A program made the translations under genes and the position numbers. Source: a virus (lineage: Duplodnaviria > Caudoviricetes). From it: DNA of 64,000 bases. Numbering within the stretch: position 1 is the stretch's first letter; each line of letters opens with the position of its first letter. Below are positions 3,137 through 62,451 of the stretch, one piece after another. Where the stretch lies: positions 3,736 to 67,735 of the IMG/VR virus record IMGVR_UViG_3300045000_000081. One strand, written 5' to 3'. The notes beneath the pieces are model-generated. The model ran no database searches and was not told the DNA's origin. It saw only the letters and a program-made list of their open reading frames with translations.

Positions 3137-3670
3137 TCATGAATTTTTCAAGATTCCTTCGGCCCAAAGTAATAGATGTGTTGCATCGACGGCATTGTCA
3201 TCTAAAATCGCGTCGTTGTCAAGCAGCCGAATTTGTCCATCGTAGAATCTAATCGTCTCGGGATACTTTTTAATCAACCACGCGGCCATCATTTCTTTCG
3301 TGGCCGAGCCGCAGCCTGTTGCGAAAATCTTTAGCTTTCCCGTCGCGAGACACTCGGTAGTCTTCTCATGGAGATATGCGTAGAGCCAGACGGTCGTCCG
3401 AAAACTGGCCCAAAGATGAGCCTGCGCGGTTGACCGCACAAATTGCACGTCTTCAAAGACGATGGCGTCAAAGGAATTTGATTCGTGCATATCTTCGATG
3501 AACTCCCACAAGGCTTGGATACGGGCATCGCCTCGCCGGTCTCCGCGAACCTTGCGTTGAATTGCGAGTGCTTTCTCTGTCGCCAGCAAGACGCTCCCGG
3601 CGCGAAGTTTTCCTTCTCGACGAATGGCCCATCCGGTCGTAGTTCCGAGGTCCAAAGATAGAATTTTCAT
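3137..3670 (-). CDS. RuvC-like Holliday junction resolvase
   Basis: N-terminal ILSLDLGTTTGWA, central IVFEDV, C-terminal DNAVDA acidic residues. Confidence 0.8.
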   Translation of the reverse strand: MKILSLDLGTTTGWAIRREGKLRAGSVLLATEKALAIQRKVRGDRRGDARIQALWEFIEDMHESNSFDAIVFEDVQFVRSTAQAHLWASFRTTVWLYAYLHEKTTECLATGKLKIFATGCGSATKEMMAAWLIKKYPETIRFYDGQIRLLDNDAILDDNAVDATHLLLWAEGILKNS

Positions 3671-4374
3671 CGCGTATTTTCCACTCCTTTTGCCTTCATG
3701 GCTTTTTGAAGTTTCGCAAGCGCGCGGTCGTGCGTCGCCCGAATGGCTTCGCGAGTAACGCCATTCTCACGTCCGATTTCGGCGAAGTTTTTTTGTTCTT
3801 CATAAACCCGGCGAATAATGTCCTGTTCGTGCGGATTCAGTGATAGCTTCGACTCGTTCAACAACGCTTGAAGATGGGAGAGATGCTCGTCTTCTTCCGC
3901 CTCCTGATGGGGGTCATCGGTAGGGATAGGCACACGTCCTGCGTATGTCTTGGGAGAATTTGAAGAGTGATATTCTCCTACATCGTTCAGCGCACGAGTG
4001 GGCGCGTTCTGGTCCGGTTTTCCCGGAATCTTCATTCTCACGGTCGAAAGATTACGCCAAAGACTCGCAATTTCTCCCCGAATAAAAAACTTCAAGTAAA
4101 CCGTGAACCGATGTCCGAGGGTATGGTCAAATTTGTCGAACGCGCGCATTACGGCAAAATTGGCGGCACTCACCACGTCATTGTCCGGGAGCTTTCCCCG
4201 CACTAATTGCCGCGCATGACGCGCCGCAAACAGGAGATGGTTTTTGATGAGAAACTCACGAGCTTCGCTGTCGCCCGCACGAGCTTTGACGAAAAGCTCC
4301 GTCTCTTGTTCACGGGTGAGCATTGTAAACCGAAGGTCTGTGTCCTTCGGATAATATCGGTTATGGTCGTTCAT
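3667..4374 (-). CDS. RNA polymerase sigma-70 family factor
   Basis: Region 1.2/2 LTREQETELFVKARAGDSEAREFLIKNHL; region 4 HTH NFAEIGRENGVTREAIR...ALAKL. Confidence 0.85.
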   Translation of the reverse strand: MNDHNRYYPKDTDLRFTMLTREQETELFVKARAGDSEAREFLIKNHLLFAARHARQLVRGKLPDNDVVSAANFAVMRAFDKFDHTLGHRFTVYLKFFIRGEIASLWRNLSTVRMKIPGKPDQNAPTRALNDVGEYHSSNSPKTYAGRVPIPTDDPHQEAEEDEHLSHLQALLNESKLSLNPHEQDIIRRVYEEQKNFAEIGRENGVTREAIRATHDRALAKLQKAMKAKGVENTR

Positions 4375-6590: not shown

Positions 6591-6995
6591 TCAACATCCG
6601 CGCTTTCGCAAGTATAACATCGCGCGACGGAAAAGCTTATCGGATTCGTCGAACATCCCGAGACCGGCGTTACATTTTTGACACAGGAGTCCCCGAACTA
6701 CTCTCCTCCGATGGTCGTGGTCAATGCTCAGTCTCCGTCGAGGGTTTCGGCATATCCAGCAACGCCCGGATTGTCGATGATAAAGGATTTCGTATTGTGC
6801 CGTAGTTAGCCCGTAGCATCTCAGTCGAAATTGTCTCGCGGAGAGTTTTACCTTTTTCGGATTTTTCTTCGCCCAATGGCGTTTTCGGAGGTTGTCACAA
6901 GGTATGCAATAATTCCGGTATCCGCAAGCGGTCTCGGGCCGTTTGCGAAACACAGAATCAGCCTTCGGTTCTCCACAAATTTTGCAGGTCCTCAT
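6591..6995 (-). CDS. endonuclease VII-family (HNH) homing endonuclease
   Basis: CWIC...IDHDH...VRGLLCQKCNAGLG. Confidence 0.9.
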   Translation of the reverse strand: MRTCKICGEPKADSVFRKRPETACGYRNYCIPCDNLRKRHWAKKNPKKVKLSARQFRLRCYGLTTAQYEILYHRQSGRCWICRNPRRRLSIDHDHRRRVVRGLLCQKCNAGLGMFDESDKLFRRAMLYLRKRGC

Positions 6996-12640: not shown

Positions 12641-12669
12641 AGAGATGCGAGCCGGTTTACCAATGTCAA
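12641..12669 (-). promoter_or_regulatory. class II phage promoter (TTGACW-N17-AYYTYT)
   Basis: TTGACA 12669-12664, ATCTCT 12646-12641; one of 7 identically spaced copies. Confidence 0.65.
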
Positions 12670-13008: not shown

Positions 13009-13302
13009 TTACTCACTCTCCGGGTTGCGATGAATAGACCGCGCCTCCGCGCACATCCCGGAAGTGCGCGGGTGCTCCCCCAATTTTGGAGATTCCGGCG
13101 ACTCCGGCGACTCCGGCGACTCCGGCGACTCCGGCACGTAGGACGCCAACACCCGTAAAGAACTGCCGAGCTTTGCCTCGTCGCGGGCAAGCTGACGCTC
13201 TGCACACAAATCCGCCCACTGATTCGTTTCAGGACGGCCCCGCTGACCCCAAAGAGCCGCCATGATTTCCCGACCACCACAACCGACTTTTCCTTTTTTC
13301 AT
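13009..13302 (-). CDS. hypothetical protein with (ESP)n repeat
   Basis: ATGA overlap with the HNH stop. Confidence 0.6.
   Translation of the reverse strand: MKKGKVGCGGREIMAALWGQRGRPETNQWADLCAERQLARDEAKLGSSLRVLASYVPESPESPESPESPESPKLGEHPRTSGMCAEARSIHRNPESE
13093..13135. repeat. 9-bp tandem repeat (CTCCGGCGA) x about 4.8
   Basis: Read directly from the sequence. Confidence 0.9.
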
Positions 13303-13727
13303 ATTTTGATTCCTTTACTGTTTAGCTGTTCTCGGAGAAGTTGATTCTCCCGTTTCAACCGTTGAACTTCGATGAATAGGTTGAAATGCACTCGTGAGTG
13401 ATTCTTTTTATCTATCACAAAAAGATTCTCAATTCGATTATCCGTTTTAATTCCATTCAGATGATGAACTTCTTCTCCGGGAAGAAGCTCTCGACCCAAA
13501 AAAGCTTTCATCACTTGCTGATGTTCATAACACCCGCGTCGGCTACGACCGCCGCGAATTCTTACATATCCGTTAGTGTCCACCACCTTTCCTCCCCGAT
13601 AGGCCGGGTTTTTGTTCCCCACAAAGGATTTTCCATGACACGACCGGGAACAAAACTTCTTTGTTTTTGCGACACTTGGGCAGCAAAGGATTTCTTTCCC
13701 GCAAAATTGACAAAGAACTACGGTCAC
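13299..13727 (-). CDS. HNH homing endonuclease
   Basis: GYVRI...YEHQQVM...EEVHHLNGIKTDNRIENL. Confidence 0.9.
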   Translation of the reverse strand: MTVVLCQFCGKEILCCPSVAKTKKFCSRSCHGKSFVGNKNPAYRGGKVVDTNGYVRIRGGRSRRGCYEHQQVMKAFLGRELLPGEEVHHLNGIKTDNRIENLFVIDKKNHSRVHFNLFIEVQRLKRENQLLREQLNSKGIKI

Positions 13728-17210: not shown

Positions 17211-17734
17211 AAAATTCGGAGTCGATAGGTTCTATACCAGTCAGCGTAGTCAAACTCGTCGGGAATCATGTCGCGCGCGTTCGCACGAAACTCATAAATC
17301 TCCCCGCTGAGATGCGCTCGCAGAAGATAAAACCATGCCGGGTCGTAGAAACAGCAATACTTGTCCGCCCAACATAATTGTGAGGGTTTTTCGTGTGCAA
17401 GCTTGGAATACTCCCGGCTGTGATAAAGCGACAGGTCATGCGTGACGCCTTCGTGATATGGGGAATCTCCACAACCCGTCGAGCCGGTGAATCGAAACAT
17501 CCAACGAGCCATCTTTTTTGCAAGGCTTGCTCCGCGTTCCGGGTGTCTGCGACCTTCTTTTCCGTCCATGTTCGGACAACCCCAATATCCAAAATCATGA
17601 CAGAATATGGCGCACCACTCATATCGGTCTGGCCATTTGCCGTATAATTTTCTCCACGCGAGGGCAACCGTAAGAGGATGCCACCAAAAACAATGAACCC
17701 CGAATACGACTGACTTAGTTCCTCTAGAAATCAT
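17147..17734 (-). CDS. putative HD-superfamily phosphohydrolase
   Basis: H...CHDFG...H...HSR...WADK pattern. Confidence 0.55.
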   Translation of the reverse strand: MISRGTKSVVFGVHCFWWHPLTVALAWRKLYGKWPDRYEWCAIFCHDFGYWGCPNMDGKEGRRHPERGASLAKKMARWMFRFTGSTGCGDSPYHEGVTHDLSLYHSREYSKLAHEKPSQLCWADKYCCFYDPAWFYLLRAHLSGEIYEFRANARDMIPDEFDYADWYRTYRLRILWLPEIQSLLAQRRRSCIFPF

Positions 17735-18228
17735 CTCAACTCCTCCGGTTGATAGGTCCTCAAAATTTCAATCGCAAACTTAATTAAGTCAGTAACTCGC
17801 TGTCCCGACGGATGGTGGGAGGCCCAGAGTTCGAGATTTGTAGGCCGATTATCGGACCGTATTCCATTTTTGTGATGGACCGTTTCGTTGAGGAAAAGTT
17901 TACGTCCAAGGATTTTCTCCATCACAACGGTATGCTCCAGCTTCCGGTCAGGATATTTACCCCGTATTTTTGTGCCATTGATTACCACATAGCCTGCCGC
18001 ATGACGCGTTCGTCCGCCTCTCCAACTGGGGTTTTGAGAACCCGTTAACCGTTTACGATGGCCACAACTCTTAGAGCGGCCATATTTCAAACTCGGGAAC
18101 TCCACCGCTCGGATTTCTCCACAATCGCATTTACAAAAAACTCTTGGAATCCTTTGGCCACGGTCGCGAATTGCGGGGCGAGCTATCCTAATGATTTCCC
18201 AGTCCCCATATTTCATTCCCATCTTCAT
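17731..18228 (-). CDS. HNH homing endonuclease
   Basis: CKCDCG, SKSCG, EHTVVME, TVHHKNGIRSDNRPTNLELW. Confidence 0.9.
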   Translation of the reverse strand: MKMGMKYGDWEIIRIARPAIRDRGQRIPRVFCKCDCGEIRAVEFPSLKYGRSKSCGHRKRLTGSQNPSWRGGRTRHAAGYVVINGTKIRGKYPDRKLEHTVVMEKILGRKLFLNETVHHKNGIRSDNRPTNLELWASHHPSGQRVTDLIKFAIEILRTYQPEELR

Positions 18229-20534: not shown

Positions 20535-21008
20535 TTAGTTGTTCTTCAGGTAACGGATTAAAGCATACAGCACGCGCGGCGATTCGTCAACGAGACCAAG
20601 GACAAAATTGCATGAGCGGCACAAGAGTCCACGCACCCGGGTAGTCCTGTGGCAATGGTCCACGCCGAGTTTCACTTTCTTTTTGCAGGTCGCACATCGG
20701 CCTTTTTGCGCCTTGAGCATCTGGTTAAACCCCGCGAGGGATAGCCCATAGTTTCGCTTCAAGTTAAACGCCACAAACTTTTGTGGATTGAGCTTGCGGT
20801 ATTCTCGGTTATACAGAACTAGGTAGGCCCGTCTCTTTTCAAGTTGAGCGATAGTCTTTTTCTTGTGCCGAATCTTTTGTTGCGCATACCGGCAAAGTTT
20901 ACAGACAGTCTCGTGGCCATCTCGTCCCGACGGATGCTTGGAGAATCTGGTAAGGACGGGTCGAGTAACCCGGCAACGCGAACATCGTTTTACTGACCCA
21001 GAACTCAT
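20535..21008 (-). CDS. endonuclease VII-family homing endonuclease
   Basis: CSRC...CKLC, CATC, VDHCH...VRGLLCRSCNFVLG. Confidence 0.9.
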   Translation of the reverse strand: MSSGSVKRCSRCRVTRPVLTRFSKHPSGRDGHETVCKLCRYAQQKIRHKKKTIAQLEKRRAYLVLYNREYRKLNPQKFVAFNLKRNYGLSLAGFNQMLKAQKGRCATCKKKVKLGVDHCHRTTRVRGLLCRSCNFVLGLVDESPRVLYALIRYLKNN

Positions 21009-21229
21009 GTAGGCTTTACCGACTTGGATTGACCAAAGCAAAGAGCGAGGACATTCGCGCAGTTCTCGCAGAAGTAAAAGTCTTTAGGGGAACCTCCCGG
21101 CGTTTGTTGGACGACGTGTAAACGCTTCATTACCGCGGTCGAACCGTCGGGCAAGAGATATTCCGCAGTATTTCTTCCGTATCCCTCGATATGAAAAGAA
21201 CAGCGTATATTTTCACAGAACGGCGTCAT
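21005..21229 (-). CDS. small zinc-finger protein
   Basis: CENIRC...FCENC. Confidence 0.65.
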   Translation of the reverse strand: MTPFCENIRCSFHIEGYGRNTAEYLLPDGSTAVMKRLHVVQQTPGGSPKDFYFCENCANVLALCFGQSKSVKPT

Positions 21230-21923: not shown

Positions 21924-21952
21924 AAAGGTGCCCCGGGTCGGTTAATTGTCAA
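21924..21952 (-). promoter_or_regulatory. class II phage promoter
   Basis: TTGACA-N17-ACCTTT. Confidence 0.6.
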
Positions 21953-24521: not shown

Positions 24522-24562
24522 AATTTGGATTGAGAGATGCGGGTATGGTTTGGAAAGTCAAC

Positions 24563-25369: not shown

Positions 25370-25506
25370 ACGGTAGGGTTTACCCTCTTTTTTGCCGCTA
25401 AGGTGCAAACATCGTGTTTTCAACGGTCCACTCAAATGTTGCCGCCGATGCCGCCGAATTGTGTGGCACAGTTGACTCGCCGTCAAATGTCCGCACCTTT
25501 TTTCCG

Positions 25507-30294: not shown

Positions 30295-30323
30295 TTGACA
30301 ACCAGAGATTGCCACGCATCTCT
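30295..30323 (+). promoter_or_regulatory. class II promoter upstream of the tRNA/ncRNA block
   Basis: TTGACA-N17-ATCTCT. Confidence 0.65.
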
Positions 30324-30347
30324 TCGGTAGTTCATTGAAATTTTTAC

Positions 30348-30423
30348 AGCGGGGTGGAGCAGTTGGTAGCTCGTCACGCTCATAACGTGAAGGTCGCTGG
30401 TTCGAGTCCAGCCCCCGCTACCA
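30348..30423 (+). tRNA. tRNA with CAU anticodon (Met-type), initiator-like scaffold lacking initiator determinants
   Basis: Full cloverleaf: AGCGGGG/CCCCGCU, anticodon arm UCACG-CUCAUAA-CGUGA, T-loop UUCGAGU, encoded CCA. Confidence 0.95.
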
Positions 30424-31381: not shown

Positions 31382-31855
31382 ATGAAACGAGTATCTCTAA
31401 GCAAAGGATATGTGGCTATGGTGGACGACCCGGATTTTCCGGCGGTCTCTAAGTTTAGATGGCACGCACAGTTACGCGGGCGGCATGTATATGCTGCTCG
31501 AAATGTTTCCTCTGGGAGAATTAAACGCTTACAATATCTGCACAGATTTCTGCTGCCGGGAACCCCGTCGGTGGACCACATAAACGGGGATGGTCTGGAC
31601 AATCGACGGCACAATTTGCGCTCGGCAACGCAACAAGAGAATAGCCGCGCGTATAGAAAAAAACGAATCGGGGTAACTTCGGCTTATCGGGGGGTTTCTT
31701 GGGACTCCGAGAAGGCTCGGTGGGTCTGCCGGATACGGCATAACGGGAAACAACTTTTTTGCGGAAGATTTGATAGCGAAGAACAGGCCGCGCGCATGTA
31801 TGACTATTGCGCGGCTCTTTTATTTGGACCCTTCGCACAAGTCAACTTCGCATGA
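31382..31855 (+). CDS. HNH-AP2 homing endonuclease
   Basis: VDHINGDGLDNRRHNLR; AP2 YRGVSW...GRFDSEEQAARMYD. Confidence 0.9.
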   Translation: MKRVSLSKGYVAMVDDPDFPAVSKFRWHAQLRGRHVYAARNVSSGRIKRLQYLHRFLLPGTPSVDHINGDGLDNRRHNLRSATQQENSRAYRKKRIGVTSAYRGVSWDSEKARWVCRIRHNGKQLFCGRFDSEEQAARMYDYCAALLFGPFAQVNFA

Positions 31856-35948: not shown

Positions 35949-36193
35949 AAATTCCTAACCCGTGGGTTGCTGCCCAAGCCGCAGCACGCGCCGCTCGTGC
36001 GGTGATGAAACGTGCGCCGCTTACCGTCTCACAGGAGACAGTTGACCTTCGGACCAAGATTTGCCATAAGTGCGAGTTTTTCGACCCTAACTTTGGACAG
36101 TGTAAGGTTTGTTCCTGTATAATTTCGCTCAAGGCACAGCTTGCCACGGAAAAATGTCCCAAGGGTAAGTGGCCATTTTCTAATCAAAGTTGA
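35945..36193 (+). CDS. small Cys-rich protein (DUF6171-like)
   Basis: RTKICHKC...QCKVCSC...KCPKGKW. Confidence 0.75.
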   Translation: MKIPNPWVAAQAAARAARAVMKRAPLTVSQETVDLRTKICHKCEFFDPNFGQCKVCSCIISLKAQLATEKCPKGKWPFSNQS

Positions 36194-36218
36194 CTTTCCT
36201 AAGAATCGTCAGACTTCT
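36190..36218 (+). promoter_or_regulatory. class II promoter for the portal operon
   Basis: TTGACT-N17-ACTTCT; ATG at 36228. Confidence 0.65.
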
Positions 36219-41880: not shown

Positions 41881-42341
41881 AGACTTGTAATAAATGTCGG
41901 GAGAGTTTGTCCGAAGAGGAGTTTAGCAAAGATAAATCCACCAAGGATGGGTTAAGGAATCGTTGTCGAAAGTGTATGGCAAAAGTATGGAAACTGGGAT
42001 ATTTATCCAACCCGGAAAAATGGAAAAAACGCTCTCGGGACTGGAGCACCAATAATCCTGAAAAACGAAAACGGATTCAGCGCAATACGGACCTTCAGAA
42101 TCTTTACGGAATCACGACGGCGGAGTTTGAAAGTCAGAAGAACAAGCAGGAAGGGCGTTGCGCCATTTGTATGGACCCGCTGATGGCGGGTAAAAATGGG
42201 GCGCATGTGGACCATGACCATCAGACCGGTAAGACCCGAGAAATTTTATGCGCGCCGTGTAATAAAGGATTGGGACAGTTTCGCGACTCGATTCCCCGTC
42301 TATCAGCAGCGGTGATGTATCTTCAAAAACATTCTAGTTGA
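41877..42341 (+). CDS. endonuclease VII-family homing endonuclease
   Basis: CNKC...CRKC, CAIC, VDHDH...REILCAPCNKGLG. Confidence 0.9.
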   Translation: MKTCNKCRESLSEEEFSKDKSTKDGLRNRCRKCMAKVWKLGYLSNPEKWKKRSRDWSTNNPEKRKRIQRNTDLQNLYGITTAEFESQKNKQEGRCAICMDPLMAGKNGAHVDHDHQTGKTREILCAPCNKGLGQFRDSIPRLSAAVMYLQKHSS

Positions 42342-42366
42342 CTTCTTCAAAAGTCTCCGCACTTCT
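42338..42366 (+). promoter_or_regulatory. class II promoter for the capsid gene
   Basis: TTGACT-N17-ACTTCT followed by an about 165-nt hairpin-rich leader. Confidence 0.65.
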
Positions 42367-53666: not shown

Positions 53667-53695
53667 TTGACATTCAAGGGTTTACACACATCTTT
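53667..53695 (+). promoter_or_regulatory. class II promoter
   Basis: TTGACA-N17-ATCTTT. Confidence 0.6.
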
Positions 53696-62422: not shown

Positions 62423-62451
62423 TTGACATCCTCACAATCAACTAGACCTCT
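62423..62451 (+). promoter_or_regulatory. class II promoter
   Basis: TTGACA-N17-ACCTCT; ATG at 62457. Confidence 0.6.

Follow-up and report, generated by a model that had tools for sequence, protein, structure and literature searches.

Three consecutive G-C pairs in the anticodon stem (29-41, 30-40 and 31-39), with G30 foremost, are treated as near-universal marks of initiator tRNAs, and as essential ones in E. coli, where G30 is the essential element of the three (PMC5389676). An E. coli mutant with the middle pair flipped (GC/cg/GC) enters 70S ribosomes and cannot sustain growth, and mutants lacking G30 are toxic (PMC5389676). When cellular tRNAfMet is low, a mutant without the three pairs initiates efficiently (PMC3017606), and the mid-CG change is tolerated in yeast, according to work cited in PMC5389676. 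Natural initiators with an incomplete set of pairs, in the forms au/GC/GC and GC/GC/gu, occur in α-proteobacteria and some mycoplasmas, as far as Samhita 2012 is cited in PMC5389676. At position 1:72, formylase tolerates a weak pair, and tRNAfMet with A1-U72 sustains E. coli as the sole initiator when overexpressed (PMC5393177).

Initiator tRNAs are also the targets of nucleases. VapC-type toxins of several bacteria cleave tRNAfMet where the anticodon loop meets the stem and leave elongator tRNAMet intact (PMC8522696, PMC10264068); as the two tRNAs have the same loop sequence, we infer that the discrimination must lie in the stem or body. Phages of VapC-carrying enterics generally avoid encoding tRNA-fMet (PMC10264068). 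Phage-encoded initiator tRNAs are already known, as are natural initiators with incomplete G-C pairs, and we found no description of phage initiator tRNAs without G30 in the searchable open literature. What is apparently new is a structurally constrained subclass of initiator-type tRNAs without G30, seen here only in phages.

The window analyzed here, a 64,000-nt stretch of a 67,735-bp phage genome from IMG/VR, carries one gene of this kind:

30348..30423, plus strand: tRNA(CAU) gene, 76 nt, with an initiator-type scaffold, A73 and encoded CCA (ARAGORN, Rfam, fold and alignment)
30374..30390, plus strand: anticodon arm, positions 27-43, with the loop CUCAUAA (sequence reading)
30381-30383, plus strand: anticodon CAT (sequence reading)

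ARAGORN calls a tRNA-Met(CAT) at exactly 30348-30423 (+), the sole tRNA that it finds in the whole genome, and Rfam RF00005 matches the interval with 69.6 bits (E = 3.9e-13). The minimum-energy fold is a perfect cloverleaf. The acceptor stem reads A1-U72, G2-C71, C3-G70, G4-C69, G5-C68, G6-C67 and G7-C66; the D stem has A11-U24 and the D loop G18G19, the variable loop is AGGUC, the T loop has T54-Psi55-C56, and the 3' end consists of the A73 discriminator and an encoded CCA. The usual tertiary nucleotides (U8, A14, G18G19, G15:C48, G53:C61 and T54-Psi55-C56) are complete. All of the formylase determinants G2-C71, C3-G70 and G4-C69 are present, together with the bacterial-initiator features CAU in a CUCAUAA loop, A73 and A11-U24, and 1:72 is a Watson-Crick pair, but a weak one. 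The three consecutive G-C pairs are not present: the anticodon stem is U27-A43, C28-G42, A29-U41, C30-G40 and G31-C39. The preliminary description had recognized an initiator-scaffold tRNA(CAU) at this place, and ARAGORN, Rfam and the alignment with metZ bear out every feature that it listed.

In alignment with the CAU tRNA genes of E. coli K-12, the phage tRNA is 83% identical to the initiator metZ, 60% to the elongator metT and 60% to ileX (Ile2). BLAST against 5,426 E. coli genomes places it at a median of four sites per genome, at 85.5%; four is also the number of initiator genes in K-12 (three annotated ones were seen). With metZ, metW, metV and metY it has in common the acceptor pairs from 2:71 to 7:66, the A11-U24 D stem, the anticodon and variable loops, A73 and CCA. 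It differs from them in having A1-U72 in place of C1xA72, in the A29-U41 and C30-G40 pairs that stand for two of the three G-C pairs, and in its T stem and D loop. An elongator tRNAMet is characterized by a strong 1:72 pair, pyrimidine 11 with purine 24 and a metT-like sequence, whereas the phage gene has A1-U72, A11-U24 and the closer resemblance to metZ. The alternative that would have refuted the preliminary description, that this is an ordinary elongator Met or Ile2 tRNA of the host lineage, was tried and is ruled out by these identities, and the anticodon arm is, as described below, nearly absent from the genomes of bacterial and archaeal species.

A tRNA-Ile2, in which host TilS would convert C34 to lysidine so that AUA is read, is extremely unlikely. 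Its CAU anticodon in a CUCAUAA loop suits that role, but the same loop is common to all three E. coli CAU classes; the phage tRNA resembles metZ far more than ileX, in place of the ileX pairs C4-G69 and C5-G68 it has G4-C69 and G5-C68, and ATA is rare in the phage (4.6 per 1000 codons). The two ileX pairs are reportedly determinants for TilS. With archaeal and eukaryotic initiators the phage tRNA shares A1-U72 on a G-C-rich acceptor stem; unlike them, it has a bacterial body (A11-U24, T54), belongs to a phage with sigma-70-type promoters and a sigma factor, and lacks the full set of three G-C pairs that they keep. An archaeal virus, as A1-U72 and leaderless mRNAs might suggest, was likewise considered and is ruled out by the TTGACA-type promoters, the phage's own sigma-70-family gene and the bacterial type of the tRNA body.

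The acceptor stem was not part of the search patterns by which initiator-scaffold tRNAs were collected, and position 1:72 is therefore an independent read-out. In 147 distinct phage initiator-scaffold CAU tRNAs, 1:72 is a mismatch in 104, a weak pair in 35, a wobble in six and a strong pair in two, so that 145 of the 147 are mismatched, weak or wobble; the corresponding numbers for 438 other tRNAs of the same loci are 9, 99, 59 and 271. The significance of this contrast (Fisher p ~1e-45) is overstated, because the sequences are related. Both of the tRNAs with a strong pair carry an adjoining 2:71 mismatch, and a strong pair is found in none of approximately 17 relatives of the phage; in this clade, a weak pair or a wobble almost always takes the place of a mismatch at 1:72. 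The exact anticodon arm of the window co-occurs with A-U, U-A, AxA, UxU, G.U, CxA, CxC, GxA and AxC at this position. On these comparisons we read A-U as one accepted state of a 1:72 position that is kept weak or open, as initiators require. The preliminary description had both initiator identity elements rewritten; for 1:72 this went too far, both because a weak A-U is tolerated (PMC5393177) and because weak pairs are normal in the phage initiator-type tRNAs. Given the tolerance of formylase and the growth of E. coli on A1-U72 tRNAfMet as sole initiator, the first of the two elements is not really lost.

The anticodon stem is a different matter, and here the case is stronger than had been claimed, both on account of the rarity of G30 loss described in the following and because G30 is essential in E. 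coli (PMC5389676). When IMG/VR was scanned with a degenerate pattern of the initiator D arm, loop and variable region, at least 117 loci matched. Among the 117 matches listed, 41 have three G-C pairs, 67 have the first pair alone changed, and 10 keep G30-C40 and differ at the third pair, in many cases at the first as well; G30 loss was seen in none of these unselected matches. An incomplete set of G-C pairs is common in phage copies; G30 loss is not. With the scan restricted to sequences that have a base other than G at position 30, the whole of IMG/VR yielded 50 loci, corresponding to 43 distinct sequences with that of the window included. Membership in this subclass is defined by the initiator D arm, loop and variable region together with a non-G at 30 paired with a non-C at 40, all of which the phage tRNA has. 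Most of the sequences have C30-G40 with G31-C39. The commonest arm is that of the window (17), followed by the pure mid-CG form (8), and the exact 23-nt arm of the window recurs in 20 IMG/VR contigs. The 43 sequences fold as a tRNA with compensatory changes at 13 of 20 pairs; in the RNAalifold consensus, 1:72 is unpaired. This pattern of covariation marks the subclass, in our reading, as a structurally constrained tRNA family.

Outside this set the arm is close to absent. Across 185,579 bacterial and archaeal species, represented by one genome each, the 17-nt anticodon arm occurs 33 times, of which 30 are in non-tRNA sequence and three in tRNAs, all on contigs of metagenome-assembled genomes. 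One of these three contigs (L022; DATIIR010000038.1, 4,143 bp) is binned as Chlamydiales, but it has a terL region related to that of the phage and an identical tRNA arm; most probably it is a piece of a relative of the phage that was put in the wrong bin, and not chlamydial DNA. The arm is absent from a collection of 50,697 phage records, in which the nearest arms, those of Komagataeibacter phages, have three mismatches. Among the roughly 150 initiator-scaffold matches listed from 401 Bacteroidota genomes, the stems are almost all canonical, and none is without G30. The natural initiators with incomplete pairs that are known from α-proteobacteria have the same first pair, A29-U41, as the phage tRNA (confirmed in Henriciella, where G30 and G31 are kept), but all such initiators, within what is cited of them, keep G30-C40, which in the phage tRNA is flipped to C30-G40.

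What such a stem does to initiation can be judged from engineered E. coli tRNAfMet, in which the A1-U72 (PMC5393177) and mid-CG (PMC5389676) changes were made separately; the phage gene combines both naturally. As G30 is essential in E. coli, a stem of the form au/cg/GC should by E. coli rules initiate poorly. This expectation is softened by the efficient initiation of the mutant without the three pairs at low tRNAfMet (PMC3017606) and by the tolerance of yeast, at least as PMC5389676 cites it. The phage tRNA has A29-U41 in addition to the engineered changes.

The same features allow the gene to be seen as an elongator derived from an initiator, or as a dual-purpose tRNA like the single tRNAMet of mitochondria, in which A1-U72 would give admission to EF-Tu, the loss of G30 would bar initiation, and the main use would be for internal Met. 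This is the main rival to the explanation that we prefer below, although an unlikely one. In its favor, A1-U72 is a Watson-Crick pair, mismatches at 1:72 are rare in the clade of the phage, the stem lacks the G30 that E. coli initiation needs (PMC5389676), and the alignment shows C30-G40 in the E. coli elongator metT as well. Mutants of tRNAfMet in which 1:72 is paired, even weakly, reportedly bind EF-Tu and act in elongation, and pairing at 1:72 is also said to make fMet-tRNA a substrate of peptidyl-tRNA hydrolase. Against such a role, the same arm is found elsewhere with 1:72 mismatches (AxA, UxU, CxC, GxA, AxC and CxA), which would be poor ligands of EF-Tu, and the avoidance of strong 1:72 pairs would have no reason in an elongator. 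Furthermore, A11-U24 is kept, and internal ATG amounts to just 16 per 1000 codons in the phage. In two loci (L018 and L006) a separate CAU tRNA of non-initiator type accompanies the one without G30; in L018, a jumbo-phage locus with 21 tRNAs, the arm type of the window belongs to the only initiator-like tRNA, and the second CAU tRNA has G1-C72.

The relatives of terL number more than 500; all of them are environmental, and contigs of 68-74 kb carry many of them. No cultured relative was found, and the sole name among them is the label 'Candidatus Peribacteraceae' of a metagenome-assembled genome. In many members of this clade, as in this phage, a CAU tRNA lies approximately 3 kb upstream of terL. 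The tRNAs of this slot keep CCA, the CUCAUAA loop and a G-C-rich, initiator-like acceptor stem in which 1:72 is weakly paired or a wobble, while their bodies vary widely: conservation across the clade is best in the acceptor stem and anticodon loop, and several relatives have a decaying elbow. The distant relatives L001, L004, L015 and L022 share the arm of the window exactly, so that an identical 23-nt arm is found at just ~45-57% terL identity, and L209 has an arm with C30-G40 that differs from it at the 28:42 pair alone. The closest relatives, L171 and L178, by contrast retain G30, with U29-A41, and have C11-G24. Because the two differ at G30, at 11:24 and in the elbow, the exact features of the phage gene are not conserved even among sister phages. 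Their tRNAs (L171:4241-4316 and L178:6519-6594, on the contigs of L217 and L224) have G1.U72, C73 and C11-G24, with a D loop without G18G19 and a T loop without T-Psi-C (for example TGAAAAT), which suggests that the elbow contact has been re-paired or lost. The tRNA most similar to that of the phage (93% identity) is in L013, whose 3.6-kb stretch has no other similarity to this genome.

The slot has other occupants as well. In more distant relatives (L230:2749-2820, L231:3872-3943, L237:3740-3812 and L246:3591-3662, and also L236 and L244) it contains CAU tRNAs whose D arm is truncated to a 4-bp stem and a 3-nt loop; they have an initiator-like acceptor stem and a TGCGACT T loop, and are reminiscent of mitochondrial tRNAs. 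In L222:2233-2305 and L223:2233-2305 the slot holds a tRNA-Lys(UUU) with G37, and in L221:2831-2902 a CAU-type gene with a loop reduced to 5 nt, which ARAGORN calls 'SeC(tca)'. In the corresponding loci of several relatives no tRNA was detected in the slot. Two odd tRNAs, at L249:4354-4425 and L004:9159-9234, lie next to the CAU tRNA of these relatives; ARAGORN gives one of them a four-base (ttga, Gln|Ser) and one a two-base (tt, Lys|Stop) anticodon call. They may be genes in decay, or tRNAs of a frameshift or suppressor kind.

This varied content, from tRNA-Lys through shortened loops and D arms to loci without a detected tRNA, raises the question of whether the gene is a passenger under relaxed selection in a fast-changing slot, its odd pairs being the product of neutral drift. 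We consider this highly improbable for the phage copy, which has no structural defect, differs in its stems from its orthologues by compensatory changes only, lies behind a conserved promoter, and shares its arm with relatives as distant as those named above. Unusually fast evolution of the tRNA was ruled out separately, as its ~70% identity to the orthologues of L171 and L178 matches that of the flanking DNA (72-78%). The possibility of an attP remnant or a captured host tRNA was also rejected: the gene is full-length with its own promoter, the nearby recombinase is of the small resolvase type, and among the species genomes searched the arm is found in no bacterial lineage.

Transcription of the gene can be related to a set of promoter sites in the window, of which the first is its own:

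30295..30323, plus strand: phage-specific promoter, TTGACA, 17 nt, ATCTCT, ending 24 nt before tRNA position 1 (motif class and relatives)
30324..30347, plus strand: putative 5' leader of the tRNA precursor, about 17 nt from a start site 6-8 nt past the -10 (promoter geometry)
12641-12669, 21924-21952 and 24533-24561, minus strand: sites of the same promoter class (motif match)
25472-25500, 30295-30323, 36190-36218, 42338-42366, 53667-53695 and 62423-62451: other sites of the class, that of the tRNA among them (motif match)

The class, TTGACW, 17 nt, AYYTYT, has nine matches in the window against 0.09 expected from shuffled sequence; two of them, at 25472 and 24561(-), go beyond the seven sites of the preliminary description. 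The same promoter precedes the orthologous tRNA in L171 and L178. Judged by the promoter geometry, the 24-nt interval behind it would include a leader for removal by RNase P. At seven of the eight other promoters an ATG lies 3-11 nt past the -10, coincident with or in frame with an ORF, so that the first gene of each such transcript would have no leader or almost none. The leaderless-mRNA setting put forward in the preliminary description thus holds for this phage-specific promoter class. A Shine-Dalgarno-like motif lies upstream of just 11 of the 61 ORFs of at least 120 aa, which, with start assignment as crude as it is, hints at little use of such motifs by the host. Many ATG starts are preceded by A-rich sequence.

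The remainder of the genome offers few proteins that can be named by PHROGs and Pfam. Besides a sigma-70-family factor of its own, encoded at 3667-4374 (-), the phage has a DNA polymerase of family A, a helicase, an exonuclease, two endonucleases VII and several HNH proteins. Genes for two endonucleases VII and three HNH proteins, one of the latter fused to an AP2 domain, lie at 6591-6995(-), 20535-21041(-), 13299-13727(-), 17731-18228(-) and 31382-31855(+); for a phage of 68 kb, this is an unusual abundance of homing-type nucleases. As regards translation, none of approximately 40 ORFs scanned was recognized as a formyltransferase, deformylase, initiation factor, RNA ligase or nuclease. Against the 50,697 phage records, neither the 5 kb around the tRNA gene (megablast) nor a 664-aa late protein (tblastn) gave a match, and the DNA polymerase is at most 27% identical to those of phage isolates.

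Our preferred explanation, for which we would claim about even confidence, is that the gene supplies the phage with a formylatable initiator that may escape initiator-specific nucleases and would work when the host initiator is scarce. Against it weigh the missing G30, the Watson-Crick pair at 1:72 with its reported consequences for EF-Tu and peptidyl-tRNA hydrolase, the departure of L171 and L178 from the features of this gene, and the failure to recognize a formyltransferase, deformylase or initiation factor among the ORFs scanned. The sigma factor of the phage would direct transcription of the tRNA from its promoter; RNase P would then remove the 5' leader, host MetRS would charge the tRNA through the CAU anticodon and A73, and the host formyltransferase would formylate it. 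Formylation is proposed because G2-C71, C3-G70, G4-C69 and A11-U24 are kept and A1-U72 is weak enough to open. The resulting fMet-tRNA would start phage proteins, many of them from leaderless transcripts. 70S ribosomes, along with fMet-tRNA, bind directly to leaderless mRNA (PMC10491246), and the binding of ribosomes by such transcripts depends directly on the initiator tRNA.

In this supply of an initiator by the phage, the flipped middle pair would keep the geometry of the helix and alter the sequence that is read by VapC-type nucleases and by the IF3/P-site check. The most likely benefit would be a private initiator that survives, and becomes usable, when host tRNA-fMet is cut or depleted during infection. 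Like the phage tRNAs proposed to evade anticodon nucleases (PMC10264068), this is a phage copy of a toxin-targeted tRNA class, and it departs from the host type near positions 38 and 39, between which VapC is known to cleave (PMC10264068); unlike those tRNAs, in which the loop is altered, it has an unchanged loop and an altered stem. The VapC enzymes of enteric bacteria, to which the preliminary description had appealed, apply here by analogy only. Among the roles suggested there, a nuclease-resistant substitute initiator fits best with the sequence features; conversion to an elongator is less probable, and a change to Ile2 after lysidine formation unlikely.

A decoy or poison was the remaining suggestion: a look-alike could soak up a toxin aimed at the initiator, or could be formylated and stall 30S-type initiation of the host while leaderless phage mRNAs escape. 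The toxicity of E. coli mutants without G30, and the entry of the mid-CG form into 70S ribosomes without support of growth (PMC5389676), would suit this, as would a clade in which the acceptor stem and anticodon loop are best kept while the elbow decays in several relatives. However, the phage copy itself has a fully canonical elbow and CCA, as in a working tRNA, and no partner protein is evident among the ORFs scanned, making this an improbable role.

A substitute initiator might also be specialized for one mode of initiation. Leaderless mRNAs are favored by IF2 and fMet-tRNA and disfavored by IF3, and the G-C pairs are needed for the transition from 30S to 70S and for release of IF3. It follows that a tRNA without G30 could be poor on the leadered mRNAs of the host and usable on the leaderless ones of the phage. 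Leaderless phage transcripts and the tRNA arising from the same phage-sigma promoter class would then give the phage an initiation channel of its own, with an fMet-tRNA tuned to the 70S pathway and blind to toxins that cut tRNA-fMet. We put this forward as speculation, with little confidence that it is correct.

With the subclass without G30, nature provides a test of which initiator features the P-site/IF3 checkpoint truly demands. Whether phages have initiators that resist toxins, or start leaderless mRNAs through a channel of their own, can be tested directly with it as well. Should the tRNA turn out to be just an elongator, it would be a natural case of the switch from initiator to elongator, which has so far been made only by mutagenesis.
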